From Candidatus Omnitrophota bacterium (GTDB taxonomy: Bacteria > Omnitrophota > Gorgyraeia > B26-G9), in the NCBI GenBank assembly GCA_018813905.1, contig JAHJAO010000031.1, positions 5,922-69,921 of the forward strand: DNA of 64,000 bases, read 5' to 3'. The translations under genes were made by a program, and so were the position numbers. The notes below the pieces were generated by a model. It was not told the DNA's origin. It saw only the letters and a program-made list of their open reading frames with translations, and ran no database searches. This document shows positions 6,607 through 56,312 of this stretch, in pieces; within the stretch, counting starts at the first letter, position 1; every line of letters begins with the position of its first letter.

Positions 6607-7077
6607 TTATTTCTTTTTATTAAAAGGGCTCTTTTTGCCGATCGTTTCCTGAAGCAGGCCCATGGGGCAGATCATGCACCAGGCGCGGTGCTTTTTTATT
6701 GTGCCCAGGATAATGGAAATTATGGTGGTTACCAGGCACATGATGACAAAGACTGAACCAATGGCCAGCAAGTTTCCTCCGGTGCGGATTATCCGGATGA
6801 TAAGAAAGCTGATAAACAAAACAAATATCAGCCAGCGGAACCAAATTTTGCTGAAAATTTTCGGCAGGGGTTTTTTGGCGCTGACTTTGGATAGGATAAT
6901 ATCTAAAAAAGCGCCTCGCGGGCACAGGTTCCAGCACCAGTACCGGCCTTTAAAAAAAGACAGGCTTAATAAAACAATCATCATGGCCAATACCAGATAG
7001 CCAAGTATTGGATAAAATAAGCCGCCGATGACGATAACCGGCAGAAACCAGATCATTACAGCTTGAGTTTTCTTCAT
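6607..7077 (-). CDS. Membrane protein with 4Fe-4S-binding-domain-like CxxxCP motifs (NapH/CcoG-type polyferredoxin-like)
   Basis: YWCWNLCPRG and WCMICPMG motifs are embedded between predicted TM helices. Confidence 0.55.
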   Translation of the reverse strand: MKKTQAVMIWFLPVIVIGGLFYPILGYLVLAMMIVLLSLSFFKGRYWCWNLCPRGAFLDIILSKVSAKKPLPKIFSKIWFRWLIFVLFISFLIIRIIRTGGNLLAIGSVFVIMCLVTTIISIILGTIKKHRAWCMICPMGLLQETIGKKSPFNKKK

Positions 7078-40508: not shown

Positions 40509-41075
40509 TCATTTAAATAAAATAGCCAAATTTAAACGCACTGATATATTCGGCCGCTTATTTACGGCAATGCTGAGCAGCTCGGGCATTACCGGCAGTT
40601 CTTTTATCTTTTCAAAAAAAAGGTAAAGGTTTTCAAAGCGCGTGTTGATATCGATTTCTAAAACCATGGTGCCATAAGCTTCTTTGATTTTAAATTCTTT
40701 AGGGCCTAAAGATTTTATTTCGAAATCGGCTTCGTTTGCCAGATGCGTGATTTTCTCCAGCATAAACGAAAAGTTCTCTTTGCTGGGTAGTTTAGCTTCC
40801 GCTTCGGTGATTTTGGCTAAATAGGAGTTTTTTTTGTATTCAATTTTTCTTAAGATCTCACCGATGTTCCTGTCGCCGGGGTATTCGATGGTCTGGATGA
40901 TTTCGATTTTACTGTTTAAATCTTTTAGCTCCTCAAGAAGCGCTTCAGCTTTTTGGGCATGAGATTTGTAAATATAATCGTAATAAAAATTAAAAAACAG
41001 CGCGATAATTCCGACTACGCCTAAAAGCTTATATTTTTTATCAATAGGCGGAAGTTTTATTTTAGGCAGTTCCAT
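40509..41075 (-). CDS. PilO-like type IV pilus biogenesis protein
   Basis: Single N-terminal TM helix plus a coiled-coil. The gene lies directly downstream of pilMN. Confidence 0.55.
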   Translation of the reverse strand: MELPKIKLPPIDKKYKLLGVVGIIALFFNFYYDYIYKSHAQKAEALLEELKDLNSKIEIIQTIEYPGDRNIGEILRKIEYKKNSYLAKITEAEAKLPSKENFSFMLEKITHLANEADFEIKSLGPKEFKIKEAYGTMVLEIDINTRFENLYLFFEKIKELPVMPELLSIAVNKRPNISVRLNLAILFK

Positions 41076-41080
41076 ATAGT

Positions 41081-42679
41081 TTACCTTTTAGAAATTGTAA
41101 TTTTAAAATAGATATTCGCTTCTCCGGCGTCTATTTTTTCTTCCGCGGTTCCGAGAGTGACATTTTTAAAATGCGGGAGCGTTTCCAGTTTTCGCACGAA
41201 TTCTATAGCCAGGATATTAGTTTTAGCCGCGCCGTTTAAGATCAGCGTTTTGTCGTTTTCGTTCAAACTAAAGTTATTCAACCAGACCCCCTCCGGGATG
41301 CTTTCGGTTATGCCTTTTAAAATTTTCAGCCATGATTCCTTGGTATCCTGGATGCTTTTTAAGAAATCCAGTTTTTTGAAGAGTTGCTGTTCGCTTTCCC
41401 AAAGTGTAATCAATTCCTGCTTTTCGCGTTTTTCTTTTGTCAGTTTTTTTTCTAAGTTTATTACCCGCGTGTACAGGAGGAACAGTGTCGCGATAAGCAA
41501 AACCGGGATAATTTTAATAAGCAGAATTTTAAATTGGCGTTTGGTGTCTTTTTTAAATTCGGCCGGCAGAAGATTCGGGCGCTTTGCGTCGCCGCTGGTT
41601 AATGCCGCGCCGATTGCCGCCGCGAAAAAAGCCATAAATTCTTCAAAATTAACAAAAGCAGTCTGGTCAAATAATAATCCGTTGAACGGATTGGCGGTTT
41701 CGGTAAAAATTCCCAATTCCTCGCTGACGAATTTTTCTAAATTTATGAGCCGGGAACCGCCGCCGTAAAACACCATCCGGTCGATTCTATCAATATGGAA
41801 TTGACCTTTATAATAACCGATAGACCGGCTTATCTCCGAGGTCATTTGTTTTAAACTCGCGGCAATCGTTGCGTAATATACCGCGTTATCGCTTAAGCCG
41901 TATTTGATTTTTGCCTGTTCCGCTTCCTCAAAACTAATCCCCGATTCTTTGGCTATTATTTCGGTAATTGTGTCCCCGCCAAAGAATATCTCGCGGGTAA
42001 AACGCAGTACGTTATTGTTGAATATATTTATTTTGGTCGTTTTGGCGCCGATATCAATCAGGGCAATAGTATCTTCTTCTTTCCAGAGATTGGATTTCTG
42101 AAAAACATTCCAGAGGCAGAACGGTTCCATGGTTATTTCTTTTATGTTTAACCGGTTGCGGGCGTAAAAATGCATGGATTCCTTTATTTCTTCGGTCTTA
42201 GCGCTGATCACCTCCAGCTCCACATTTTTAGCGCCGGCGCGGATTATTTCGCCGCAAACCAGAAAATCAATAGTGGCTTCTTCTATCGGATAACTGATAT
42301 TTTGCTCCATCTCCCACTTCACCGATTCTTTAAGTTCGTTGTCCGGCATTAACGGCAGAGACAGGTTTTTAATGTTTAATGAAGGAGTCTTAATTATCGC
42401 GCACACGTTGTTTGATGCGCTTGTTTTTAATTGAGTATAGGCGTTTTTTAATGCGGCATTAATATTTTTTTGCAAGGTGCCGGCTGCTTCATCTCCCTCT
42501 TGTTTTTGGACCTCGGCGATACCGATACTTAAAAGCCGAGTGCCGATCGGCGCCTCTTTTAAAACGACCACCTTGATAAATCTGGTACCGACATCAATGC
42601 CCACAAGCTTTGCTCCGGGCTCAAAGATGTTGATTTCTTTATCTAATTTGCTGGTGATCTGTTTTATTTTAATATTCAT
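41081..42679 (-). CDS. PilM-PilN fusion protein (actin-like ATPase domain fused to PilN membrane domain)
   Basis: PilM-type N-terminus LVGIDVGTRFIKVVVL, the internal TM segment ILLIKIIPVLLIATLFLLY, and a PilN-like C-terminus. Confidence 0.8.
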   Translation of the reverse strand: MNIKIKQITSKLDKEINIFEPGAKLVGIDVGTRFIKVVVLKEAPIGTRLLSIGIAEVQKQEGDEAAGTLQKNINAALKNAYTQLKTSASNNVCAIIKTPSLNIKNLSLPLMPDNELKESVKWEMEQNISYPIEEATIDFLVCGEIIRAGAKNVELEVISAKTEEIKESMHFYARNRLNIKEITMEPFCLWNVFQKSNLWKEEDTIALIDIGAKTTKINIFNNNVLRFTREIFFGGDTITEIIAKESGISFEEAEQAKIKYGLSDNAVYYATIAASLKQMTSEISRSIGYYKGQFHIDRIDRMVFYGGGSRLINLEKFVSEELGIFTETANPFNGLLFDQTAFVNFEEFMAFFAAAIGAALTSGDAKRPNLLPAEFKKDTKRQFKILLIKIIPVLLIATLFLLYTRVINLEKKLTKEKREKQELITLWESEQQLFKKLDFLKSIQDTKESWLKILKGITESIPEGVWLNNFSLNENDKTLILNGAAKTNILAIEFVRKLETLPHFKNVTLGTAEEKIDAGEANIYFKITISKR

Positions 42680-42699
42680 TTTTTATAATTGGCCAACCT

Positions 42700-43137
42700 T
42701 TAAGAGCTGCTGATTTTAGATAAGCCCGTAGTTGAGAAAACGTTTATCGTTAATGAATCGGAAGAGCTATTGCTGCGAATAGTAATCACGGACGATACAT
42801 CGGTGTCTCCTCGCGGTGAAAAAGAGGTATCCGTTGCTCCCGTTATATTATTATCCAGGCTTACCGTGGTAATCGTCCCGATAAGCGAGCCTGTGGCCGG
42901 GTCTCTTTTTTCTATGGTGTAAGTATCCGCGTTTACATCAAAATCGAATTTATAGTTAAAATGTTCGACTACAGCCAGTTCGCGGTAGGAGCGCAGGTTC
43001 GAAAGCAGTATCCAGCCGTCCTTTTTTAAAGAAGAATAATCAATATACGAACGAAATACAGGCAGGCCCAAAAACGCGAAAACCGCAATCACCGAGAGAA
43101 CAATAAGTAATTCTATCAGGCTAAATCCGCTTAGCAT
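42700..43137 (-). CDS. Type IV pilin (prepilin-type N-terminal cleavage/methylation domain), likely major pilin
   Basis: The class III signal MLSG|FSLIELLIVLSVIAVFA has Glu at +5. The start is chosen at the internal Met; the ORF extension upstream is probably untranslated. Confidence 0.75.
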   Translation of the reverse strand: MLSGFSLIELLIVLSVIAVFAFLGLPVFRSYIDYSSLKKDGWILLSNLRSYRELAVVEHFNYKFDFDVNADTYTIEKRDPATGSLIGTITTVSLDNNITGATDTSFSPRGDTDVSSVITIRSNSSSDSLTINVFSTTGLSKISSS

Positions 43138-43328
43138 CTTCCCCCGATACCGGCGCGCAGGTCCTTTTAAAAAATGATTTAACATATTTATGCAAAAGGA
43201 GTTTCGACTCTTTTTTGTTAATTTTAACATTATCAAAAATTATAGTCAAGGAAAGTTTTAGTTTGTTATGAGCTTGACACGCCGGTAAAGCAATGATAAA
43301 ATTAAATCGTATTTTATTTTTATAACTT

Positions 43329-43832
43329 ATGCAGAATAAGGGATTTACATATTTAGAAGTTTTGCTGGGCGTGATGCTGTTGGGGTTAATTTTAATTCCG
43401 CTGTTGTCTCAGTTCTATATCGGGTTCCAGGGCAATAAAAATGCGACACTGGTAACCCAGTCCGTGGATTTAGCAAGTGACCTGATGGAAGAAATCAAGT
43501 CCCGCCGTTTTGATGAAAACGAGTTTCCGGATGATCCGGTTCCGGCTGTAAGCCTCGGTACAGATGCGGGAGAAAATGCAACCGATCGGACTACTTTTGA
43601 CGATATTGATGATTATAACGGCTGGCAGTCTTGCCCACCAAAGACAATTGATGGCAATGCCCTCACCGACTTCTCTGATTTTACCAGGAAAGTAACCGTA
43701 ACTTATGTAATACTAAGCGGCTCGAATTGGGTCGCCTCCGGCACGGCTACTCATTATAAAGAAATTAATGTAACTGTCACGCATCCAGATGTTAACGATA
43801 GGGTTTTAGAAACTATCGTTTCCCATTATTAA
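43329..43832 (+). CDS. Prepilin-type pseudopilin / minor pilin
   Basis: MQNKG|FTYLEVLLGVMLLGLIL with Glu at +5. Confidence 0.7.
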   Translation: MQNKGFTYLEVLLGVMLLGLILIPLLSQFYIGFQGNKNATLVTQSVDLASDLMEEIKSRRFDENEFPDDPVPAVSLGTDAGENATDRTTFDDIDDYNGWQSCPPKTIDGNALTDFSDFTRKVTVTYVILSGSNWVASGTATHYKEINVTVTHPDVNDRVLETIVSHY

Positions 43833-43837
43833 ACTTT

Positions 43838-44398
43838 ATGCTAAAAAAGATATCCGCCCGCAGCGCTCATAAAGAGTCCGGATTAAGCCTGGTTGAGGTT
43901 CTGATCACTATTGCGATCCTGGCCGTAGTCCTGTTTCCTATTTATGAATTTTTAAGGCAAGGGGCGTTGTCCTGGCAGATTGGTGAAAATAAAACCGAAG
44001 TTACGCAGAATGCGCGTATTGGCCTGGATAAGATGTGTAACGAGATAAAACATGCCCGTGCATTTTACACGCTAGGCTCTTCCCAAGTCCGATTCTGGTG
44101 GAAAGATTTAAACGATGATGAACTCGCCGATGCGAACGAAATCATTACCTATAACTGGAGCGGGACTTCCGGTGACGATTTAACCCGGAAGTTTGATGCG
44201 GAAGCCGAAGCTACTCCCCTGGCCAATTATGTGGATAGCTTCGAATTTAAATACTATGATATTCTGAGCGCCGAAACAGCCGCTCTTGACGCTGTGCATT
44301 TTATAACCGCGACGTTGCGGATTAAAAAAACCGCGCAGGAGTTTGATTATACGGCGATAATGCGTAAAGCCGTATACCCGAGAAATATGAATATTTGA
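43838..44398 (+). CDS. Prepilin-type pseudopilin / minor pilin
   Basis: ...ESG|LSLVEVLITIAILAVVL with Glu at +5. Confidence 0.7.
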   Translation: MLKKISARSAHKESGLSLVEVLITIAILAVVLFPIYEFLRQGALSWQIGENKTEVTQNARIGLDKMCNEIKHARAFYTLGSSQVRFWWKDLNDDELADANEIITYNWSGTSGDDLTRKFDAEAEATPLANYVDSFEFKYYDILSAETAALDAVHFITATLRIKKTAQEFDYTAIMRKAVYPRNMNI

Positions 44399-44401
44399 AC
44401 T

Positions 44402-46243
44402 ATGAATACAAGACAAAAAAATAAAGGAATCGTTTTACTGCTTGTCTTAATCGTAATAATGGTTTTATCGCTTTTGGGAACGGCTTATTTGGGTTCGATC
44501 CTTTCAGAGAGCGGTATTGCGCGCAACCAGGAAAACAGCGAAAAGGCGTTTTTTATCGCGGAAGCTGGCATTAACCGCGGTTTAAAACATATAATGGATT
44601 ATCCGGATATCTCGCTTTTACCTTGGATGGTTACCGAAAACATGACCGCCGGCCATTATATCGTAACCGCAGCCGAAGCCCCGGATATCGGGGAAGGTTA
44701 TGTGCGCATTACCTCTGTGGGTTACGTGGATAATGTCAGCCGAATATCGGAGATCGTTGTTTTTATGAATGCCTGGACACATGCTTTGATGTCCAATACG
44801 GATATTACTTATTCCGAGACGTCCAGCGGTTATGTCAATGGCGATGTGCATGCGAACGGTTCTGTAGCCGGGATTGCCGCAACATCCGGACTGGATTATG
44901 TGGCCGGTTCGCGCGACGCGCGGGGTGATGATGCCCGGTTTGAAATAAAAAACAATACGGGATTTGATGTTACACTTACGGCCCTGACCGCGACCTGGAC
45001 ATCCCCCACGGCTTATTATGAGACAATCAATCTGGACGTGAATCCGGGGACTAATTACGGTAATGTTTGGAGATATCAGCAGGCCGGAAATGTTCGTGCG
45101 GGAAGCGGAGATAAATCCGTATTTAACCAGGGAAAAACCGTAATTGTCCCGGCAAACAGTATTGTTATTGTGGATATCCTGAATTTCCGTACGAATCAAA
45201 CCGGAGGCGGCGGCGCTCAGCAAAACATGGATAATACCCGTTTTACCATCACGACCTGGGCGGGAAGTATTTTTCATACCGCAAGTGTTCCTTTAGAAGG
45301 AGAAGGCGCAGAAGTGGTGATTACAGGTAAAATCACCCAGGGAGCATTAGGCGATCCGCTGATTAAAATGCCTTTGGTTGTGCCGGAAAGGTATTATGCG
45401 GACCGGACTTTTTATTATGACGGAGATTATGTGTTTAACGGCATTGAAGGGCAAGCTAGTTCTTATCGGGACGAAGGGTTTTATGTTACCGGAAAAGTTA
45501 TTTTAGATAACAGCTTTACTAATATGACCTTTAATTATTGCAGCATTTTTGCCGAAGACGGAATTGAAATCGGGCCGCAGCGCAATGGCACTTTTGATTA
45601 TGTACTCGATTCTACCGTGGGCCGGCAAAAAGATATCGCGTTCCAAATGAAAAATGAATCCGGGCAGTCGCTCAGCGTCTCTTCGGTTTCTTTTACCTGG
45701 GACGGAGACAATAATAACCGCTATCAGTCCATTGATGCCGCGGTTAGCGGCGGAACTGATTATGGCACGGTCTGGAACGGAAATGCTTCTAAGAATACAA
45801 TAGTAAACTTTTCTTCCGCGATAGTTGTTCCGGTTGCAGCCACTGTGAACTTTACCGTGCATTTCAGCAGGAATACCGCTTATTCTTTCCTAAGCCGGTT
45901 TTTTGCGAGTAGTATTGAATACGCTTCTGCAATCGTGGAAGAAGGCAGGCTTCCTAACCTTGTGTTCCAAGGCCGGCGTGAATATGCCGCGCTCTCTACT
46001 CAGGAAGGGGATATTTTGGAGTACGGGACAAAAGACAAAGGCGATATGCAGATGCAGGGTATAATCTATTCTCAGGAAGGGACGGTGGAGTTTAATAACA
46101 TTACTTTAGACGGCGCGATTGTCGCCAACCGCATCAATCTGATTAAGGATTTTGATATCGAATACAAAAGCCGCTATGTCCCCAATCCCCCGCCCGAATA
46201 CATCGCGGGGCTTTCAATCCTTGACTGGCAGGAAAATTATTAA
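44402..46243 (+). CDS. PilX-N-terminal-domain-like large minor pilin / pilus tip protein with an internally duplicated domain
   Basis: The N-terminal hydrophobic helix (KGIVLLLVLIVIMVLSLLG, no Glu at +5) is PilX-like. Two internal repeats of about 90 aa are present (..TW..Y..I..DV..GT.YG.VW...). Confidence 0.6.
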   Translation: MNTRQKNKGIVLLLVLIVIMVLSLLGTAYLGSILSESGIARNQENSEKAFFIAEAGINRGLKHIMDYPDISLLPWMVTENMTAGHYIVTAAEAPDIGEGYVRITSVGYVDNVSRISEIVVFMNAWTHALMSNTDITYSETSSGYVNGDVHANGSVAGIAATSGLDYVAGSRDARGDDARFEIKNNTGFDVTLTALTATWTSPTAYYETINLDVNPGTNYGNVWRYQQAGNVRAGSGDKSVFNQGKTVIVPANSIVIVDILNFRTNQTGGGGAQQNMDNTRFTITTWAGSIFHTASVPLEGEGAEVVITGKITQGALGDPLIKMPLVVPERYYADRTFYYDGDYVFNGIEGQASSYRDEGFYVTGKVILDNSFTNMTFNYCSIFAEDGIEIGPQRNGTFDYVLDSTVGRQKDIAFQMKNESGQSLSVSSVSFTWDGDNNNRYQSIDAAVSGGTDYGTVWNGNASKNTIVNFSSAIVVPVAATVNFTVHFSRNTAYSFLSRFFASSIEYASAIVEEGRLPNLVFQGRREYAALSTQEGDILEYGTKDKGDMQMQGIIYSQEGTVEFNNITLDGAIVANRINLIKDFDIEYKSRYVPNPPPEYIAGLSILDWQENY

Positions 46244-46246
46244 CTT

Positions 46247-47851
46247 ATGGAATTCGCACAGCTTATTACCCGAATGTTTAAACTTCGCGCCTCCACCGTG
46301 CATATTGCCGCGGGCATATCTCCCCTGTTTAATATCCACGGGCGCCTGGTGAAAAGCGATATCGCCCCTTTCGATAGCGGAACAATAAAACAGCTCTCTT
46401 CGGCTTTGATGAATAAAGAGCTTCTGGACAGATTTAAAAAAAATAACGCCGTAAATTTTATCTGCCAATATGAAAATATCGGCAGATTCCGGGTGAGTTT
46501 TTTTCGGCAACGGGGAGATATTTCCGGCGTTATAAAAAGTATGCCGGAATCTATTCCTTCGTTTGAAGAATTGAACCTGCCGCAGATTATAAAAGATAAA
46601 GTTCTTCGGCTGCGCAGCGGCTTAGTCGTCATTACCGGCCCTTCCGGATGCGGCAAGTCCACGACCCTTGCGGTTATCCTCAATCTTATCAACACGCAGC
46701 GGCCCTGCCACATTGTAACCCTGGAAGACCCGATCGAGTATTTCTTTGAGCACAAAATGGCTTTAATATCCCAGCGTGAAATCGGGTTGGATACGCATAG
46801 TTACCCAAAGGCGATTCGCGAAGCTACGCGCCAGGATGCGGATATTATCATGATCGGCGAGATGAGGGATATGGAAACCATTGATGTGGCAATGAGTGCG
46901 GCGGAATCCGGCTGCCTGGTTTTGGCGACGATGCCGACCGCGGATAGTGTGCAGACAATCTATCGCATTGTTACTTCTTTCCCCTCGGAAAAACAGCAGC
47001 AGGTCTATGTGCAAATGGCGGAAACTTTACAAATGGTAATATCGCAACAGCTGGTTATGCATAGTGACGGCAAATCCCGCGTGCCGGCGGTGGAAGTAAT
47101 GGTAGTTAGCGAAGCGGTAAGAAACCTGATTCGGAACCGCAACATACACCAGATACCTTCCGCGATAGAAAGCGGCAATACTTCCGGCATGCAGTCGCTT
47201 GATCAGGCCTTGCACGCGCTTTATGAAAAACATATGATTTCTGAACTCGAAGTCATAACCAAGTCCGTTACGCCCGTACAAGCCACAAGACACATAAGCC
47301 GGGTGTCTATCCCCCCACCCGAAAATATTTCCGGACCAGGGTTTTTGGATGTGGGCGAAGAGATAATGCCTATTGATAAAAAGATGATAAAATATAAAGC
47401 TAACTTAACCACGGGCCAGGAGGGGTATTGGACGTCATCTTTGCCGGTGGTGTTTAATAATGAAGGTATGGTTTTGTCGGTTGCTCCGGGATTACATGTC
47501 GAACGCATCTATGTTTCCGATTTTAATATTGTCGGAAAAAAAACGGTTTCGTTTGAACTGGCCAGAAAACTGCTTTTAAGATTCAAGCTGGAATTGGACG
47601 AAAGCGATGCGCTAAAAAATGTGGACGAGCTTTGTTGTCTAGAGGTAAAGATATTTACCCAGCCGGAGACAGCTCAAGCGGCGAGTTATAATAAAATAAA
47701 TCTTAAATTCCCCTTACAATTAAATGAAAAATGGCATACTTGGGTTATTAATATTCCCCAACAAGCTCAGGGCAAAATGTTGAAAATCAGCATGTTCGAG
47801 TTCCCGAACTTCTTGACAAGGGTTTTGATAAGCGATATCATATTTTTCTAA
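46247..47851 (+). CDS. PilT/PilU-family ATPase with ~190-aa C-terminal extension of unknown function
   Basis: Walker A GPSGCGKSTT plus an Asp box and His box in the first ~345 aa. The remaining C-terminus has no recognised motifs. Confidence 0.8.
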   Translation: MEFAQLITRMFKLRASTVHIAAGISPLFNIHGRLVKSDIAPFDSGTIKQLSSALMNKELLDRFKKNNAVNFICQYENIGRFRVSFFRQRGDISGVIKSMPESIPSFEELNLPQIIKDKVLRLRSGLVVITGPSGCGKSTTLAVILNLINTQRPCHIVTLEDPIEYFFEHKMALISQREIGLDTHSYPKAIREATRQDADIIMIGEMRDMETIDVAMSAAESGCLVLATMPTADSVQTIYRIVTSFPSEKQQQVYVQMAETLQMVISQQLVMHSDGKSRVPAVEVMVVSEAVRNLIRNRNIHQIPSAIESGNTSGMQSLDQALHALYEKHMISELEVITKSVTPVQATRHISRVSIPPPENISGPGFLDVGEEIMPIDKKMIKYKANLTTGQEGYWTSSLPVVFNNEGMVLSVAPGLHVERIYVSDFNIVGKKTVSFELARKLLLRFKLELDESDALKNVDELCCLEVKIFTQPETAQAASYNKINLKFPLQLNEKWHTWVINIPQQAQGKMLKISMFEFPNFLTRVLISDIIFF

Positions 47852-47861
47852 GAGGACGCTT

Positions 47862-48935
47862 ATGAATATTTTTGAGTTTATCGATCAAATAATCGAACAG
47901 AAAGCCTCGGATTTGCATATCGTTGCCGGAGCACCGCCGGCGATACGCGTTAACGGTCAGCTTGTTTTTTTCGAGCAAAGTAAGCTGACGCCCGATGAGG
48001 CAAAAACTCTCTGCTACGAACTGTTGAGCGATGAACGTAAAGTAAAGTTTGAAAAAGATAAAGAGCTCGATTTCTCCTATTCTTATAACAGCAAGAGTAA
48101 GAATTTATTCTGCCGGTTTCGCGTGAACCTCTATTGGCAGCGCGGCAGCGCGGCGATGGCGCTGCGGTTTATTGCCAATGAGATATTGGCCTTTACCAGT
48201 CTGAACCTGCCTCCTATACTCAAAGATATTTCCCGCCTGCGCCGGGGATTGGTTTTGGTTACGGGCGCAACCGGTAGCGGCAAATCTACGACTTTAGCTT
48301 CCATGGTCGATTTGATAAATAAAGAACGCAGCTGTCACGTTATTACCCTGGAAGACCCGATAGAATATTTTCATACGCACCAGAAATCACTTGTTTCACA
48401 GCGGGAAATCGGAGAAGATACCGCATCCTTTTCCTTGGCTTTGAGAGAAGCGGTAAGGCAGGATCCGGATGTTATCCTCGTTGGCGAAATGCGGGATTTG
48501 GAAACGATAAGTATCGCGATTACGGCCGCGGAAACCGGGCATCTGGTTCTGGCTACGCTCCATACCACCGATGCGGTACAAACCATAGACCGCATTATCG
48601 ATGTTTTTCCTCCCCACCAGCAGCAGCAGGTGCGTACGCAGATTTCCATAACCCTGCAGGCGGTAGTCGCCCAGCAGCTGGTGATGTGCGGTGACGGGAA
48701 GACGCGGGTGCCGGTTGTGGAAATAATGGTGGTTAATCCGGCGATAAGAAACCTTATCCGCGAGGGAAAAACTTACCAGATATATTCGGTTATTGAAACC
48801 GGACGCGACCAGGGCATGCAGACGCTGGATCAGGCCTTACAGGATTTGATTTCCAGAAAACTTATTACTTATAATGAGGCGTTTGGCGTGACGCGTGACC
48901 CGGAAAATTTGAGAAAGAAACTCGAAAACAGCTGA
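47862..48935 (+). CDS. pilT: Type IV pilus twitching motility ATPase PilT
   Basis: Canonical PilT of 357 aa with Walker A GATGSGKSTT and AIRNLIREGK. Confidence 0.9.
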   Translation: MNIFEFIDQIIEQKASDLHIVAGAPPAIRVNGQLVFFEQSKLTPDEAKTLCYELLSDERKVKFEKDKELDFSYSYNSKSKNLFCRFRVNLYWQRGSAAMALRFIANEILAFTSLNLPPILKDISRLRRGLVLVTGATGSGKSTTLASMVDLINKERSCHVITLEDPIEYFHTHQKSLVSQREIGEDTASFSLALREAVRQDPDVILVGEMRDLETISIAITAAETGHLVLATLHTTDAVQTIDRIIDVFPPHQQQQVRTQISITLQAVVAQQLVMCGDGKTRVPVVEIMVVNPAIRNLIREGKTYQIYSVIETGRDQGMQTLDQALQDLISRKLITYNEAFGVTRDPENLRKKLENS

Positions 48936-48948
48936 TAACCGGTTCCGA

Positions 48949-50451
48949 TTACTCCTCGCCAAACACTTCCGCGGAAAAAATATAAATTTGGGCGTTTTTC
49001 ATCCAGGCATCCGGCGGCAACCCGGCCTTTAAACAAGTATGCTTCAAGAACTCTTCTTTGCTCCAGCCGTATTCGGTCGCGACCTGCGGCAGAAGGAGTC
49101 CGGAGCCAAAATTTTTTCTGATTAACAGGCCGTGTTTTCCTACCTCAATTTCATCAATATCAAATATTTGTTTTAACGGTGATAATACGGAAATTTCTAA
49201 AACGATGCTTTCAAGCTCGTCTTCCCTTACCGGCTCAAACCGTGGATCCCGAGTTGCGGCCTCAATCGCCATCTCCTGTACAACCCGGACAAGCTGGGTG
49301 TCGCCGACTATCCTGCCGATACAGCCCCGCAGATTCCCTTTCTTTTTGAGGGTTACGAAAGCGCCTCTTTTTTCAAGAAAGGCCGGGTCAATATCGTTTA
49401 TCTGCGGCGTGGTCTGTTCTTTTATATATTCGCTTATCGTCATTTTGGCAATTTCCAACAAACTCTTTTTTTGTTCCTCGGTCAACATCTCTCCCCCTTT
49501 TTTATTTGCGGTGTTATCTGGTTGCGGTTTATAGAAAATTATGCTTGCGTAGCCGACAACTTTATTGTTATTTGTCCGCGTTGTGTTAAATGATGTAGCG
49601 TATTTCAAGAGTTTCGTGTTGGTAATACCCAATTTCTTCATGGTAAGTATTAAGGTGACCACTGCTGCGCTGCCGCAAAGCTCGCTTTTTTTTAGCTGGC
49701 AATCGCGAAAAAGCCCTTCGGCATCAAGGCGGGATATGGTTGCAAGCGTAGCTTGGTCTATTTTCTGGGCTGCGGCTTGAGAATGGTAATGGGACATATC
49801 CGTGCTGGCGATAATTAAGGTGTTATCTTTATCTTGGCTTAATATTCCGGCAAGACCGGCTGCGAGCTCCTCGCATAATTTATAGGAAGGGTTACTTAGC
49901 ATTATCGGCACAATTTTAAAATCTTTTAAGCTTTCCTGCAGAAATGGAATTTGTACCTCCAGCGCGTGTTCCTGCTCAAACGCCAAAGGTAAATTTACGA
50001 TGTTTTTATTCCCGTTTATTAGCGCTTGTGTTGTTTTCGCATCAATGGCTACATCCCCCAATGGCGTGCGGAAATAGCCTTTTTCGAAAACCGCAATCTT
50101 ATCCAGCCACTGATAATGGCTGGGGCCGATGAGAATAACCCGGGTATACTTTTTGTCTTGCAGGGCACGATAGGCATGCGCGGCTACGGGCCCGGAATAA
50201 ATATATCCGGCATGGGGGCTGATAATGCCGAAAATATGTTCGTCTTGTGCGCTTGCGGTATTTGCGTTTTGCATAAATGTTGCTATGGTATTTTTAAGTT
50301 GTTTTTTGTCCGCCGGGTAAAAAACGCCGCTGACATTGGGATATTTTATCGTCTCTTGCGCCAGGATTTGAGACGGAGAGGCGTAAAAGGCAAGCAGTAG
50401 CAACGCGGCAGTCATAAAGTATAGATATGTTTTTTTAGTCTTTATGTCCAT
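48949..50451 (-). CDS. AmmeMemoRadiSam system protein B (Memo-like) fused to protein A (AMMECR1 domain), with N-terminal Sec-type signal peptide
   Basis: Memo: GIISPHAGYIYSGPVAAHAY. AMMECR1: RGAFVTLKKKGNLRGCIGRIVG. The N-terminus MDIKTKKTYLYFMTAALLLLAFYASPSQILAQE is a signal peptide. Confidence 0.8.
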   Translation of the reverse strand: MDIKTKKTYLYFMTAALLLLAFYASPSQILAQETIKYPNVSGVFYPADKKQLKNTIATFMQNANTASAQDEHIFGIISPHAGYIYSGPVAAHAYRALQDKKYTRVILIGPSHYQWLDKIAVFEKGYFRTPLGDVAIDAKTTQALINGNKNIVNLPLAFEQEHALEVQIPFLQESLKDFKIVPIMLSNPSYKLCEELAAGLAGILSQDKDNTLIIASTDMSHYHSQAAAQKIDQATLATISRLDAEGLFRDCQLKKSELCGSAAVVTLILTMKKLGITNTKLLKYATSFNTTRTNNNKVVGYASIIFYKPQPDNTANKKGGEMLTEEQKKSLLEIAKMTISEYIKEQTTPQINDIDPAFLEKRGAFVTLKKKGNLRGCIGRIVGDTQLVRVVQEMAIEAATRDPRFEPVREDELESIVLEISVLSPLKQIFDIDEIEVGKHGLLIRKNFGSGLLLPQVATEYGWSKEEFLKHTCLKAGLPPDAWMKNAQIYIFSAEVFGEE

Positions 50452-51602
50452 ATGCCCGGGATCTTCTGCTGGCAAAACTTGCATGTGCCAGACGTTATAG
50501 AATTATCAAGTATTGTATATCCGGTCCTGCGGATAAGCGCTTTCTTGCAATTGGGGCAGTAGGTGTTTTCCGCTTTATGGCCGGGGATATTTCCGATATA
50601 GGCGAATTTGATTCCGGCCGCGTCGGCGATTTTTTTAAAATTTTCCAGCGTGCTCAAGGGCGTGGGTGGCAGGCCGGCTAATTTATACATAGGATGAAAA
50701 CGGGAAAAATGTATCGGTGTGTCTTCCCCTAAGTTATCGCTGATCCAAGCACACATCTTCCGCGCCTCATTCGCGTCGTCGTTTAAAGTAGGTATAACCA
50801 GGTTGGTAAGCTCTAGCCACACCCCCATTTCTTTTTTTATCAAAACCAGGTTATCCAGCACGGTTTCAAGATACCCGGAACAGATATCCCGATAGTAATG
50901 TTCGGAGAAACTTTTAAGGTCCACGTTTATCGCGTCCATATATCGGCATAAGTTGCGCATGGGTTCTGGATTAATCGAGCCGTTCGAGTGCATGACGTTT
51001 TTTATCCCCTGATGACGCGCGATTTTGGCAATAGCCAAAGTGTATTCATAAAAAATCGTAGGTTCGGTATAGGTATAAGCAATACTCGGACAGCCGGCGG
51101 CTTTGGCGCGATAAACTATCTCCCGGGGCGAAATTTTAACGCTGTTGATTTGTTCGGGCCCGGCCTGAGATATTTGCCAGTTCTGGCAGAACTTGCAGCG
51201 CAGGTTGCATCCCACCGTAGCCAGGGAAAAAGATATCGTCGCGGGCAGCACATGAAAAAACGGCTTTTTTTCGATGGGGTCGATATGAACCGCGCAGGGC
51301 CGGCCGTAGGCTAAATTGTAAAATGTTCCGTTTTTATTTTCCTTAATCCGGCAGAAACCCCGCTTGTTTTTTTCTACTACACACGCGTGCGGGCAATGCC
51401 GGCAGCGCACCCGGCCGTCAGGCATTTTTTCATAGTAAAGCGCTTCATGCAATTCGGTATCGGATGCGAAAACTTCGCAAGTTCTTCCTGCGGCCAGATA
51501 AGAGCAAAAGCCAAATGCGGTTTTTAAAAATACTCGTCTATTTAATAACATAATTATGGCTGGTTTATTTAAAAGTGTAGCACATTTTGAAATTGATATC
51601 AA
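50442..51602 (-). CDS. AmmeMemoRadiSam system radical SAM enzyme with N-terminal twin-arginine (Tat) signal-like extension
   Basis: CNLRCKFCQNW (CxxxCxxC) lies downstream of YYEKMPDGRVRCRHCPHAC. The N-terminal extension carries NRRVFLK + TAFGFCSYLAAG + VFA|SD, i.e. the RRxFLK consensus. Confidence 0.8.
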   Translation of the reverse strand: MISISKCATLLNKPAIIMLLNRRVFLKTAFGFCSYLAAGRTCEVFASDTELHEALYYEKMPDGRVRCRHCPHACVVEKNKRGFCRIKENKNGTFYNLAYGRPCAVHIDPIEKKPFFHVLPATISFSLATVGCNLRCKFCQNWQISQAGPEQINSVKISPREIVYRAKAAGCPSIAYTYTEPTIFYEYTLAIAKIARHQGIKNVMHSNGSINPEPMRNLCRYMDAINVDLKSFSEHYYRDICSGYLETVLDNLVLIKKEMGVWLELTNLVIPTLNDDANEARKMCAWISDNLGEDTPIHFSRFHPMYKLAGLPPTPLSTLENFKKIADAAGIKFAYIGNIPGHKAENTYCPNCKKALIRRTGYTILDNSITSGTCKFCQQKIPGIWT

Positions 51603-51624
51603 TCACCGGATTAGTTAGGGTCGC

Positions 51625-52110
51625 TTATTCGATGATTTCAATCTGGGAGGGCGTGTTTATGATGATTTCGGGCTTGCCCCGGTATTCTTTTATTGTTCCT
51701 TTGACGCGGACTTTTTTATTTTTATAATAGACATCCGGAGAAGAAGCAAATTTAGAAAAACTGGAAGCGAAAATTACCGCCGTAAAATACCTTTTATAAT
51801 CGGGATGAAAATTCAAAAAACATGCCTTATTGGTTTTGTAAGTGCCGACAACAACGCCTTCGACAACCGCGAATTTGCCGTAATACTTAGGGGCTAATTT
51901 GTAATCAATTACCGGCGGTGCGGGTTGCGGGGATTTATTGAGAGCACTTTTCTCAGGCATTCTAAATTTAAAGGCCGTGTTATAGGTAAAGATAATAACA
52001 AAAATTGCGGCAAGAGTTACCAGAATACGCAGCAATATCAGGTTGAGATCAAGTTTTGGCGGATTTTTATTCATTATCGGGTTTGTTTTGTGCCGGGTAT
52101 TGCCGGCCAA
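51625..52110 (-). CDS. Membrane-anchored OB-fold (BOF/YgiW-like) protein
   Basis: N-terminal TM helix. The C-terminal segment VVEGVVVGTYKTNKACFLNF...VRVKGTIKEYRGKPEI is typical of bacterial OB-fold domains. Confidence 0.5.
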   Translation of the reverse strand: MAGNTRHKTNPIMNKNPPKLDLNLILLRILVTLAAIFVIIFTYNTAFKFRMPEKSALNKSPQPAPPVIDYKLAPKYYGKFAVVEGVVVGTYKTNKACFLNFHPDYKRYFTAVIFASSFSKFASSPDVYYKNKKVRVKGTIKEYRGKPEIIINTPSQIEIIE

Positions 52111-55655: not shown

Positions 55656-55973
55656 CTATTTTGAAGCGGATTCGTCTTTTAACTTCTTTAGCAATAAGGG
55701 AGTGAGAATAAAGCAGTCTTTTTCTGCGTCTTTTACCAGGCGGTAAAAATCGCAATTATTTAAGCAATTCTTGAATTTTTTGGCAAATTCGCCCTGTGTT
55801 TTTCCCGCACATAAGGTGCTGGCAATAACCCAGCAGGCCCGGCCGGCGTTTGTCCCGCCATGCGTGTCATGAAGGCGTTTTTCCGTAGCCGCCGGACAAA
55901 CTCCAAATTGCTTTTCCTGTGCCCCTCCCGGCTGCCGGCCACAGTTTTTATGTTCCCAACAATTCTTTTTCAT
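55656..55973 (-). CDS. Small Cys-rich protein with two Cys-Trp motifs (two-CW-domain-like), paralog 1
   Basis: NCWEHKNCG...VCPA...RACWVI, plus 4 more Cys. Its 5' 150 nt are near-identical to the adjacent paralog. Confidence 0.65.
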   Translation of the reverse strand: MKKNCWEHKNCGRQPGGAQEKQFGVCPAATEKRLHDTHGGTNAGRACWVIASTLCAGKTQGEFAKKFKNCLNNCDFYRLVKDAEKDCFILTPLLLKKLKDESASK

Positions 55974-55988
55974 AAGTATGAGTTCTGC

Positions 55989-56312
55989 TTATTTTTTAGA
56001 TGCATCTTCTCGTATCTTTCTAAGTAATACCTGGCTTAAAATAAAATGGTTTGGTTCTTCAGTTTTTACGAGATGATAAAAATCGCACTCCAAGCATTTT
56101 TTGAACTTTTTAGCGAAGTTCTCTTGTACGCTGCCATTGCACATGGTTCCGGTTATAACCCAGCAGGCCCGGCCGGCGTTTGTCCCGCCATGCGTGTTAT
56201 GAAGGCGTTTTTCCGTAGCCGCCGGACAAACTCCAAATTGCTTTTCCTGTGCCCCTCCCGGCTGCCGGCCACAGTTTTTATGTTCCCAACAATTCTTTTT
56301 CATAATATCCAC
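55989..56312 (-). CDS. Small Cys-rich protein with two Cys-Trp motifs (two-CW-domain-like), paralog 2
   Basis: Same N-terminal 50 aa as paralog 1, with one D/N difference. The C-terminal half has diverged. Confidence 0.65.
   Translation of the reverse strand: MDIMKKNCWEHKNCGRQPGGAQEKQFGVCPAATEKRLHNTHGGTNAGRACWVITGTMCNGSVQENFAKKFKKCLECDFYHLVKTEEPNHFILSQVLLRKIREDASKK

Follow-up and report, generated by a model that had tools for sequence, protein, structure and literature searches.

A predicted exported AmmeMemoRadiSam system in which a radical SAM enzyme and its Memo-AMMECR1 partner both carry conserved N-terminal signals

A two-gene locus in the window analyzed here (the whole stretch of DNA, 64 kb long) likely encodes an extracytoplasmic variant of the AmmeMemoRadiSam system, where the radical SAM enzyme AmrS has a predicted twin-arginine (Tat) signal and its partner, a Memo-AMMECR1 fusion, has a predicted Sec signal. 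All of the evidence is computational, and both export and cleavage are inferred. Radical SAM enzymes depend on SAM, on a low-potential electron donor and on oxygen-sensitive Fe-S clusters, and for that reason those known to us are all cytoplasmic. Given the distribution of the signals described below, we think it likely that the signal-bearing AmmeMemoRadiSam proteins form a large, apparently undescribed branch that works outside the cytoplasm.

Results

A radical SAM enzyme and a Memo-AMMECR1 fusion with N-terminal signals

The product of the amrS open reading frame (Table 1) matches the curated family model TIGR04337 with 381.1 bits against a cutoff of 220. It also matches PF04055 with 76 bits, and the CX3CX2C motif, present as CNLRCKFCQNW, lies inside that match. 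In an AlphaFold2 model of the protein (pLDDT 89) the closest PDB fold is the PFL activating enzyme 3cb8 (E 3e-13, TM-score 0.78 over the target), and PFL activating enzyme is also the top PDB match by sequence. Motif and fold therefore satisfy membership in the radical SAM superfamily, with SAM cleavage itself inferred. Two further cysteine motifs are present. The N-terminal set (C50, C53, C57 and C67) is likely an auxiliary metal or Fe-S site, an inference from sequence alone, and the C-terminal CX2C...CX2C motif resembles, by analogy, a zinc-ribbon or rubredoxin site.

The partner protein scores 283.2 bits with TIGR04336 (Memo, component B; cutoff 26) and 193.7 bits with TIGR04335 (AMMECR1, component A; cutoff 99), together with 222 bits for PF01875 and 195 bits for PF01871, and its relatives in the PDB are MEMO1 and two AMMECR1-like proteins, MM0484 and PH0010. 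The components of the system are encoded together, with B and A fused and amrS overlapping the fusion gene, and the orthologous loci L081-L083 have the same arrangement; in L081 and L082 the identical gene order comes with a 4-nt overlap. The overlap in the window raises the possibility of translational coupling within one operon. A functional link to the neighboring OB-fold, SNase, Na/H exchanger and PilT genes was considered and rejected, as this order is merely common to the close relatives L082 and L083 and was not seen in other phyla.

Table 1. Features of the locus, with positions in the 64-kb window
Feature	Position	Strand	Basis
amrS, AmmeMemoRadiSam radical SAM enzyme precursor, 369 aa	50442-51551	minus	TIGR04337, PF04055
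Predicted Tat signal peptide, residues 1-29, predicted cleavage VFA/SD	51465-51551	minus	read from sequence; outside TIGR04337
Twin-arginine motif N-R-R-V-F-L-K, residues 4-10	51522-51542	minus	fits homolog consensus
N-terminal four-cysteine motif, C50, C53, C57, C67	51351-51404	minus	(nearly) invariant columns, alignment A1
Radical SAM CX3CX2C cluster motif, C115, C119, C122	51186-51209	minus	invariant in alignment A1
C-terminal CX2C...CX2C motif, C332, C335, C357, C360	50472-50558	minus	invariant in A1
amrS stop / amrBA start overlap, 10 nt	50442-50451	minus	gene coordinates
amrBA, Memo (B)-AMMECR1 (A) fusion precursor, 500 aa	48949-50451	minus	TIGR04336, TIGR04335, PF01875, PF01871
Predicted Sec signal peptide, residues 1-31, predicted cleavage ILA/QE	50359-50451	minus	read from sequence
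Memo-like domain, residues 37-306	49534-50343	minus	TIGR04336, PF01875
AMMECR1 domain, residues 330-497, with LRGCIG motif	48961-49464	minus	TIGR04335, PF01871

Neither N-terminal stretch is covered by the family models, which match AmrS only from residue 39 and the fusion only from residue 37. The AmrS N-terminus reads as a Tat-type signal, MLLNRRVFLKTAFGFCSYLAAGRTCEVFA followed by SD, and is laid out as M-LLN-RR-VFLK-TAFGFCSYLAAG-R-TCEVFA/SD, where the slash marks the predicted cleavage. It has the features of a Tat substrate in the twin-arginine motif, a short and mildly hydrophobic h-region of 12 uncharged residues (TAFGFCSYLAAG), a basic c-region residue (R23), and an AxA-type cleavage site formed by V-x-A at -3/-1 (V-F-A/S). 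The AlphaFold2 model places residues 5-21 in an isolated helix and leaves residues 23-31 disordered. Among the 64 open reading frames of the window, only AmrS has a Tat-like motif. The fusion begins with MDIKTKK-TYLYFMTAALLLLAFYA-SPSQILA/QE, which meets our rules for a Sec signal, with KTKK followed by YLYFMTAALLLLAFYA and then I-L-A/Q. Signals were assigned throughout by motif and hydropathy rules of our own. Neither of the Tat-signal models TIGR01409 and PF10518 matched the whole proteins or their excised N-termini, which for AmrS was a 37-residue peptide; these models are very short and are subject to HMMER filters.

The AmrS extension is translated and both signals are conserved

The mechanically called amrS frame opens at TTG 51602, and we prefer the ATG at 51551 as the start because it is the start called for the identical public protein P0001 and because the ortholog P0007 begins with the same MLLNRRVFLKT. 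An alternative is that the start codons are wrong and that the true AmrS begins further downstream, for example at the TTG for L35, giving MHEALYY. In favor of this, the in-frame TTG lies directly before the conserved HEALYY, a clear Shine-Dalgarno sequence is found at neither start, and the public gene call P0121 for the fusion begins at an internal Met. Against it, the signal-peptide ATG is the sole start codon in L081-L083, with none between it and the conserved domain, and the four differences between the segment encoding MLLNRRVFLKT and its counterpart in L081 are all synonymous. The extension also appears in hundreds of independent gene calls and six-frame reads. Together, the absence of an alternative start in the orthologs and the synonymous-only change in the motif demonstrate that the AmrS extension is translated. 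The TTG at L35 was rejected on the same absence, and wrong start codons are as good as ruled out.

A signal-like N-terminus is present in 114 of the 120 closest AmrS homologs, where 55 are Tat-like and 59 are Sec-like; four of the six homologs without a signal resemble truncated gene calls. We derived the Tat consensus [TS]-[RK]-R-x-F-[LI]-K from 114 distinct N-termini of homologs. The motif logo has K at +4 (63/114) and T or S at -1 (54/114), both enriched though unconstrained by the search pattern. Median h-region hydropathy, 1.86 in Tat-type AmrS, rises to 3.08 in the Sec-type, a split that matches what is expected of the two pathways. On the partner side, about 103 of the 120 closest Memo-AMMECR1 fusions have a Sec signal, 19 of them with a lipobox-like motif. 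In a set of 80 related loci from more than 15 phyla, picked by similarity to signal-bearing queries, AmrS has a signal in 73 (47 RR-type Tat, 5 with a KR variant, and 21 Sec-like), and nearly all partner proteins found in these loci bear one as well. Because the signals of AmrS and its partner are conserved among homologs, chance is excluded as their source.

Signals are not a general property of the family, as 82 of the top 150 family representatives, used as a control, start directly at the conserved MKEALFY region. When the export trait was placed on a neighbor-joining tree, 6 changes were needed versus about 41 with shuffled labels. Signal presence thus follows the phylogeny of the mature domain, and signal-bearing AmrS proteins form one coherent clade. 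Three Nitrospirota loci (L036, L063 and L076) encode an AmrS without the extension adjoining a partner with a lipobox-like signal; here AmrS may act from the cytoplasm or could leave with another protein. In L011, L034 and L048, Tat-type amrS is adjoined by standalone AMMECR1 genes that lack a signal.

These results bear on a sequence-only reading of the locus, which had proposed a Sec signal cut before QE on the fusion, a Tat signal with RRxFLK, h-region, basic residue and AxA-like site on the radical SAM protein, and that two such signals were unlikely to coincide by chance. All three proposals held. It had also asked whether orthologs keep the N-terminal extensions or start at a downstream Met, and whether related loci resemble this one; the extensions are kept, no downstream-Met starts occur in L081-L083, and signals recur in the related loci as given above. 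Its suggestion that both components are exported is supported, with export itself still a prediction.

Tat genes, fusions and neighbors in related genomes

The same reading had suggested looking for tatA and tatC. Searching the 64-kb window by tblastn with TatA and TatC of E. coli found neither gene, a result of little weight given how small a piece of the genome this is. In other genomes, L054 has a tatA-tatC-tatA-amrS-amrBA operon, and in L069 and in L003, an Omnitrophota locus, tatC or tatA also lies adjacent to amrS. A DUF362 protein with a Tat signal is a common neighbor, and only of Tat-type AmrS.

These observations bear on a second alternative, that the Tat-like peptide is vestigial or binds a chaperone and the proteins remain cytoplasmic. 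NarG is a precedent for such a peptide. The lack of a TIGR01409 or PF10518 match, the 12-residue h-region and the absence of tat genes from the window could be read in its favor. Against it, the full consensus of motif, h-region, basic c-region and AxA site is kept, Sec-type signals fill the same position interchangeably in sister lineages, a Sec or lipobox-like signal is present on the partner as well, and tatA or tatC is adjacent in three loci. We consider this alternative very unlikely.

Gene fusions provide information on which side of the membrane AmrS is placed. P0259 and P0273 are each built of one membrane anchor, an FMN_bind domain carrying the D..SGAT flavinylation motif and AmrS, in that order, and the last two are not separated by a membrane helix. 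We infer from sequence alone that FMN_bind and AmrS share a membrane side in these proteins. P0241 consists of a signal, a beta-propeller and AmrS, and P0247 of a signal, CBM_11 and AmrS. P0248 has a six-helix DsbD_2 domain followed by AmrS, with both ends of the domain outward by the positive-inside rule. AmrS is also fused to polytopic NapH/NosR-like domains in the clade. The helix count of P0242 is ambiguous, with five helices after FMN_bind versus six in P0243 and P0261.

Frequent neighbors include transmembrane electron-transfer proteins. DsbD_2 occurs only with Sec-type AmrS (13/21 versus 0/52). Through these fusions and neighbors, the clade is linked both to the Tat machinery and to electron transfer directed outward. 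A polytopic spermidine-synthase-like membrane protein adjoins amrS in 39 of the 80 related loci, and its spermidine-synthase-like loop is predicted to face outward in 30 of 32 homologs. In the window, no electron-transfer module adjoins amrS and no spermidine-synthase-like membrane protein is present. The sole component of such modules there is a lone Fer4_5 gene, 44 kb from amrS.

With this in hand, we return to the possibility, also raised by the sequence-only reading and kept here as an unlikely rival, that the N-termini are uncleaved anchors. In our version of it, the enzymes would not be released but would stay tethered to the cytoplasmic membrane on its outer side, although Sec-like ones might face inward. 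Several points support it. The Sec-like AmrS N-termini are very hydrophobic, at a median hydropathy of 3.08, and in several of them no clear AxA site is present; the existence of fusions to polytopic DsbD_2 and NapH/NosR-like domains shows AmrS to tolerate membrane attachment; and an inward-facing anchor would remove the Fe-S and SAM problems for Sec-type enzymes. Against anchors, the two window proteins have good -3/-1 sites (VFA/S and ILA/Q), the positive charges before the hydrophobic stretch predict an N-in, C-out orientation, and lipobox-like motifs on partners imply processing at the outer face. In addition, AmrS is placed outside by the fusions in which it follows FMN_bind, CBM_11 or a beta-propeller, and the restriction of DsbD_2 to Sec-type AmrS fits a need for reductant outside the cytoplasm.

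A further rival, which we also judge unlikely, is that AmrS does its chemistry in the cytoplasm, for example modifying the Memo-AMMECR1 precursor or loading a product, and that the proteins are exported afterwards, such that the periplasmic form has no need of SAM or electrons. The three signal-less Nitrospirota enzymes with lipobox-like partners would fit, as would the closest fold, since PFL activating enzyme acts on a protein substrate. There are also precedents for radical SAM maturation of exported proteins in HxsBC with HxsA (PMC13128918) and in the anaerobic sulfatase maturases. Moreover, Tat is able to carry bound partners, and signal-less AMMECR1 genes adjoin Tat-type amrS in L011, L034 and L048. 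Against this, if AmrS were purely a cytoplasmic maturase, retention of its conserved signal in more than 15 phyla would serve no purpose, fusion or adjacency of AmrS to outward electron-transfer modules, including FMN_bind with a flavinylation motif, points to a need for electrons after export, and a partner exported by Sec crosses unfolded and could not be recognized as a folded cytoplasmic substrate.

Discussion

The reading we favor remains an outward-facing system. In this model AmrS, a radical SAM enzyme that is PFL-activase-like and has three cysteine sites, would be made with its 29-residue twin-arginine signal, fold and gain its Fe-S clusters in the cytoplasm, cross through the Tat translocase and probably be cleaved after VFA. 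The Memo-AMMECR1 fusion, with its 31-residue Sec signal, would cross unfolded and be cleaved after ILA. Once in the periplasm, the AmrS, Memo and AMMECR1 domains would work jointly on a substrate that belongs to the cell envelope or lies close to it. Electrons may be delivered by FMN_bind, NapH/NosR-like or DsbD_2 modules, an inference that draws on other genomes, as the modules are absent from this window.

The caveat of the sequence-only reading, that a periplasmic enzyme would need SAM and a reductant, stands and is the real problem. We neither know of nor found any SAM pool outside the cytoplasm, or any radical SAM enzyme with demonstrated activity there. SAM might be pre-bound to the folded exported enzyme or might come by way of the spermidine-synthase-like membrane protein. 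The comparative data suggest an electron supply and merely hint at a SAM supply. On the motif of the spermidine-synthase-like protein, true spermidine synthases have D where the GGGxGG loops here show A, V, I or M. The motif pattern was matched in 11 of 32 homologs, mostly as GGGxGG with one of these four residues, and is too weak to be used as evidence.

A bolder reading is that this widespread clade represents the first radical SAM machinery operating outside the cytoplasmic membrane. Tat, or in some lineages Sec, would export AmrS, which would be re-reduced there by DsbD_2 proteins or by transmembrane modules ending in a covalently flavinylated FMN domain, the putative periplasmic counterpart of flavodoxin. 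SAM would reach it through the spermidine-synthase-like protein or be exported pre-bound. If true, Memo/AMMECR1 chemistry would be directed at a cell-envelope substrate. We hold this reading only tentatively and, on balance, would not yet bet on it.

As in canonical AmmeMemoRadiSam, all three models (TIGR04335, TIGR04336 and TIGR04337) score well above cutoff, the genes are adjacent and overlapping, and CX3CX2C and LRGCIG are intact. Canonical members, however, start at MKEALFY without a targeting signal, whereas here and across the whole clade a Tat or Sec signal is found on AmrS, with a Sec or lipobox-like one on the B-A fusion. RNA base modification was proposed earlier for the family (PMC2034487), and Burroughs 2019 (JBC, PMC6664185) reportedly proposed nucleotide or isoprenoid modification. 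These proposals assume a cytoplasmic setting. For the signal-bearing clade we consider RNA base modification unlikely and favor a cell-envelope substrate. Memo and AMMECR1 have human homologs linked to disease, and the finding narrows the long-standing question of their role.

AmrS shares its fold, a small partial-barrel radical SAM core, with PFL activating enzyme and other glycyl-radical activases, but differs in its extra N- and C-terminal four-cysteine motifs, its export signal and the lack of a glycyl-radical enzyme partner. Assignment of AmrS to these activases was tried and rejected, as its scores with their family models fall far short of the cutoffs (47.6 versus 231.75 for TIGR02493, 40.8 versus 174.35 for TIGR02494).

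Tat-exported Fe-S proteins include hydrogenase small subunits, NrfC and Rieske proteins. AmrS resembles them in having a twin-arginine signal on a cofactor-loaded Fe-S protein, with tatA or tatC adjacent in some loci, yet none of them is known to be a radical SAM enzyme or to need a diffusible cytoplasmic co-substrate like SAM. Flavinylated extracytosolic electron-transfer modules have been described in RnfG, NosR, NapH-like and DsbD systems (Meheust et al. 2021, PMC8238504). The [ST]GAT FMN_bind, Fer4_5 and DsbD-type domains of such modules are fused or adjacent to AmrS in the clade, but not in the window, and the survey makes no mention of radical SAM, Memo or AMMECR1. Radical SAM chemistry is also tied to a periplasmic end product in maturases of exported proteins, among them the anaerobic sulfatase maturases and HxsB/C. 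There, however, the signal is on the substrate and the maturases are not known to carry an export signal themselves, whereas here it is on the radical SAM enzyme; the localization of HxsB/C, which matures periplasmic HxsA, is undetermined (PMC13128918).

In the literature searched we found no description of an exported AmmeMemoRadiSam system or of a periplasmic radical SAM enzyme, and we cannot exclude that PMC6664185 mentions membrane or secreted contexts. A multi-phylum clade with signals on the enzyme and its partners challenges the cytoplasm-only view of radical SAM chemistry, and the links to Tat genes and outward electron transfer strengthen that challenge. The Sec-type signal on a multi-Fe-S/metal enzyme (59 of 120 homologs, 21 of 80 loci) is hard to reconcile with export, because Sec moves unfolded chains and no Fe-S assembly is known outside the cytoplasm. 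Sec-type AmrS is always without a Tat motif and often lies beside DsbD_2, raising the question of whether anaerobes could assemble Fe-S enzymes outside the cytoplasm.

Two overlapping genes with predicted export signals

The window carries two overlapping minus-strand genes at 48949-51551, amrS, encoding the AmmeMemoRadiSam radical SAM enzyme AmrS, followed by amrBA, encoding a Memo (B)-AMMECR1 (A) fusion. By every family test, this locus fully qualifies as an AmmeMemoRadiSam system (see table). The curated family models align from residue 39 onward in AmrS and from residue 37 onward in the fusion, so the N-terminal stretch of each protein is absent from the families as defined. AmrS begins with MLLNRRVFLKTAFGFCSYLAAGRTCEVFA, followed after the predicted cleavage site by SD, while the fusion begins with MDIKTKKTYLYFMTAALLLLAFYASPSQILA, followed after its predicted cleavage site by QE. 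A mechanical open reading frame for amrS reaches TTG 51602; the gene call of the identical public protein P0001 begins at ATG 51551 instead, and read from this ATG the first eleven residues are identical to those of the ortholog P0007.

In an AlphaFold2 model of AmrS (pLDDT 89), the confident core begins at about residue 34; ahead of it lie a detached helix (residues 5-21) and a disordered segment (residues 23-31) that holds the predicted cleavage site. The top PDB match of the model is PFL activating enzyme, and no solved AmrS structure was found in the PDB. Family-model scores led us to reject AmrS as a glycyl-radical activase despite the similar fold. Tat-signal HMMs gave no match to the AmrS N-terminus, and the Tat-type and Sec-type classes used here rest on our own motif and hydropathy rules, with no dedicated predictor.

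Coordinates of features in the window, in related amrS loci (L001-L080) and in the closest genomic relatives of the window (L081-L083)
Feature	Location	Strand	Remarks
amrS	window 50442-51551	minus	369 aa from ATG 51551; TIGR04337 381 bits (cutoff 220); contains CNLRCKFCQNW
amrBA, B-A fusion	window 48949-50451	minus	500 aa; TIGR04336 (Memo, B) 283 bits; TIGR04335 (AMMECR1, A) 194 bits
Lone small Fer4_5 membrane protein	window 6607-7077	minus	two NapH-like motifs; 44 kb from amrS; adjoins DUF11-repeat protein gene
Spermidine-synthase-like membrane protein	L054 9949-12105; L003 7119-9365		examples among 39 loci
DUF362 protein	L037 4854-5831; L011 5000-6004		examples; directly upstream of Tat-type amrS
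DsbD_2 membrane protein	L001, L006, L008, L012, L013, L017, L018, L020, L021, L028, L038, L045, L077		adjoins Sec-type amrS
tatA-tatC-tatA-amrS-amrBA	L054 4938-8602		compact cluster
AmrS without N-terminal extension	L036 3663-4637; L063 2514-3488; L076 5998-6966		Nitrospirota
Second radical SAM protein	L035 2415-3470	minus	351 aa; 56 bits to AmrS
Scramblase/LOR-like gene (PF03803)	L081 8801-9403; L082 9389-9991; L083 7044-7646		200 aa; directly upstream of amrS
Tandem cysteine-rich proteins	window 55656-55973; 55989-56312	minus	small, paralogous; no Pfam match
Type IV pilus-like or type II secretion-like cluster	window 40509-48935		two PilT-type ATPases at end
First PilT-type ATPase	window 46247-47851		C-terminal extension of ~180 aa without domain match

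The extensions are conserved in both components

In the three nearest genomic relatives (L081-L083; 60-67% identity, syntenic with the window), the stretch from the signal-peptide ATG to the conserved domain contains no further start codon, and the MLLNRRVFLKT segment differs between the window and L081 by four synonymous changes and no non-synonymous change. With no alternative start in these orthologs and only synonymous change, the extension is translated, and a wrong start codon, including the in-frame TTG at L35, is ruled out. The sequence-only reading had predicted that both components are exported, AmrS with a Tat signal and the fusion with a Sec signal, and would have been refuted by orthologs consistently starting downstream; L081-L083 instead keep the extension.

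We sorted the 120 closest AmrS sequences (54-67% identity; Omnitrophota, WOR-3, Stahlbacteria, PVC and others) by N-terminus: 35 are RR Tat-like, 20 are KR/RK variants and 59 are Sec-like and very hydrophobic, which leaves six with no signal, four of them visibly truncated gene calls. A scan limited to one genome per species gave 80 loci, which span more than 15 phyla, including Acidobacteriota, Aminicenantes, Zixibacteria, KSB1, Caldithrix, Planctomycetota, Kiritimatiellae, Lentisphaerae, Elusimicrobia, Thermodesulfobacteriota and Ignavibacteriota. Read from the DNA, their AmrS N-termini are RR-type in 47, KR-type in five, Sec-type in 21 and unclear or absent in seven. When 114 distinct N-termini were aligned at their arginine pair, the consensus was [LI]-[TS]-[RK]-R-[ED]-F-[LI]-K; its enrichment for K at +4 and for T/S at -1 was not imposed by the search pattern. 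Median h-region hydropathy is 1.86 for Tat-type and 3.08 for Sec-type N-termini, a difference expected between the two pathways.

The nearest Memo-AMMECR1 proteins are all B-A fusions (120/120). Their N-termini are Sec-type in 101 cases and Tat-like in two; of the 17 others, which show no signal, most are gene calls cut off inside one. A lipobox-like motif occurs in 19 of the 120, for example LVFLSAC/SS and LIFLVGC/TT. The partner lies within 6 kb of amrS in ~30 of the 80 loci, nearly always with a signal. The extensions are thus present in homologs of both proteins, and the claim of signals on both components held across the clade, by rule-based calls, with Tat- or Sec-like signals on AmrS and Sec- or lipobox-like signals on the fusion.

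Predicted signals are specific to one old clade of AmrS

Exhaustively searching 1.84 billion cluster representatives, we obtained 1551 relatives at E <= 1e-30 and classified the top 150. Of these, 82 begin directly at the conserved MKEALFY, among them ~17 long AmrS-AMMECR1-Memo fusions, while 35 are Tat-like, seven Sec-like, 13 have other N-terminal fusions and the remainder are partial. When the mature domains were placed on a neighbour-joining tree, six changes sufficed to explain the exported-or-not trait, versus ~41 after shuffling, and together with the 82 signal-less proteins this shows that our rules do not call signals everywhere. The window AmrS falls in a 42-leaf clade with 39 exported-type members. 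Given this clade and the few trait changes, signal-bearing AmrS, as called by our rules, is an old and coherent subfamily. Because a signal-bearing query served to rank both samples by similarity, their fractions are not family-wide frequencies. The AmrS-AMMECR1-Memo fusions in the family are ~1000 aa long and lack signals.

Tat genes, fusions and neighbours

Tat linkage, natural fusions, conserved neighbours and the AlphaFold2 model of AmrS supply independent evidence, all of it computational, for an outward-facing location. The sequence-only reading had asked about tatA and tatC in the genome, and Tat genes were found beside amrS in three related loci. In L054, the tat genes and a Tat-signal amrS are 3 nt apart or overlap by 4 nt, and the earliest in-frame start of amrBA, which has a lipobox-like signal (LVGC), overlaps amrS. 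tatC is also near amrS in L069, and tatA and tatC lie downstream of it in L003 (Omnitrophota). The L054 MAG is labelled Altiarchaeota.

Natural N-terminal AmrS fusions, found in homologs P0241-P0273, involve FMN_bind (with flavinylation motif), Fer4_5 (NapH/NosR-like), DsbD_2, CBM_11 or a beta-propeller. FMN_bind domains sit on the outer face; flavinylated by ApbE, they carry electron transfer in extracytosolic systems (PMC8238504). In P0259 and P0273, a single N-terminal membrane anchor is followed by FMN_bind, which has a D..SGAT flavinylation motif, and by AmrS; no membrane helix lies between FMN_bind and AmrS. Six predicted helices separate these two domains in P0243 and P0261; P0242, with five helices counted after FMN_bind, is ambiguous. 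The order is signal, beta-propeller, AmrS in P0241 and signal, CBM_11, AmrS in P0247. DsbD_2 precedes AmrS in P0248 and P0258, and short-loop K/R counts give P0248 six helices with both termini out.

The commonest neighbour of signal-bearing amrS (39/80 loci) is a ~720-aa polytopic membrane protein with a spermidine-synthase-like domain, matching PF01564 and NF037959 (fused MFS/spermidine synthase). Its ~310-residue soluble loop lies on the K/R-poor side in 30 of 32 homologs, which predicts an outward orientation. In 15 loci there is a DUF362 protein (PF04015) that itself bears a Tat signal; AmrS is Tat-type in 14 of these loci and Sec-type in none, and in nine loci the DUF362 protein is joined by DUF6599 proteins. 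A DsbD_2 (CcdA-like) membrane protein adjoins amrS in 13/21 Sec-type loci versus 0/52 Tat-type loci, and a DsbD_2-FMN_bind-Fer4_5 protein is present in eight of the 80. The loci are not phylogenetically independent, and Fisher values for these associations overstate significance. The spermidine-synthase-like protein was not found in the window, and neither it nor electron-transfer accessory genes lie near amrS there; the only related window gene is the distant Fer4_5 gene.

A proposed working and the cases that do not fit

We favor, as the likely account, export of both components and joint action outside the cytoplasm, with export and cleavage inferred by computation only. AmrS would fold and receive its clusters in the cytoplasm, be exported by Tat and be cleaved after VFA; the fusion would leave through Sec, with cleavage after ILA; and together they would act on a substrate outside. 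In the cytoplasm, radical SAM enzymes receive electrons from flavodoxin. By analogy, NapH/NosR- or DsbD_2-type membrane modules may feed a periplasmic covalent FMN domain, which could plausibly answer the question of electron supply across the clade. For SAM we have no firm answer; we can only speculate that it might leave bound to the folded enzyme or be supplied via the spermidine-synthase-like protein.

Several cases do not fit. Fe-S proteins use Tat, a rule with which Sec-type signals on AmrS, a protein with several Fe-S or metal sites, conflict. The restriction of DsbD_2 to Sec-type AmrS suggests that a thiol reductant may be available beyond the cytoplasm, though the link is unexplained. 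In three Nitrospirota loci, AmrS has no N-terminal extension and the Memo-AMMECR1 protein beside it has a lipobox-like signal; the spermidine-synthase-like protein (L036, L076) and a DsbD_2-FMN_bind-Fer4_5 gene (L063, L076) are nearby. Standalone AMMECR1 genes without a signal accompany Tat-type amrS in L011, L034 and L048. Because of these Sec-type, Nitrospirota and standalone AMMECR1 cases, two alternatives remain alive: that the radical chemistry takes place, wholly or partly, before export, or that partners ride out through Tat together with AmrS.

Relation to known systems and other genes

The exported form that we favor would be a novel variant within the known AmmeMemoRadiSam system, on computational support only. 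No description of an exported AmmeMemoRadiSam or a periplasmic radical SAM enzyme was found in the literature searched, which did not include Burroughs 2019, the key comparative paper on Memo contexts. AmmeMemoRadiSam families are not mentioned in a survey of extracytosolic flavinylation (PMC8238504). Earlier functional proposals for them centered on RNA base modification, which an exported clade would not fit (PMC2034487).

L035 encodes a different second radical SAM protein with a Tat-like start, MEITRREFIKRSLIMGG, so AmrS may not be the only radical SAM enzyme to carry a Tat signal. The Scramblase/LOR-like gene of L081-L083 is absent from the otherwise syntenic window at 51552-51625. The tandem cysteine-rich proteins of the window (MKKNCWEHKNCGRQPGG...) adjoin predicted FIST, histidine kinase and response-regulator/GGDEF genes, assigned by gene order common to L081. 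A type IV pilus-like or type II secretion-like cluster is also present in the window (see table).
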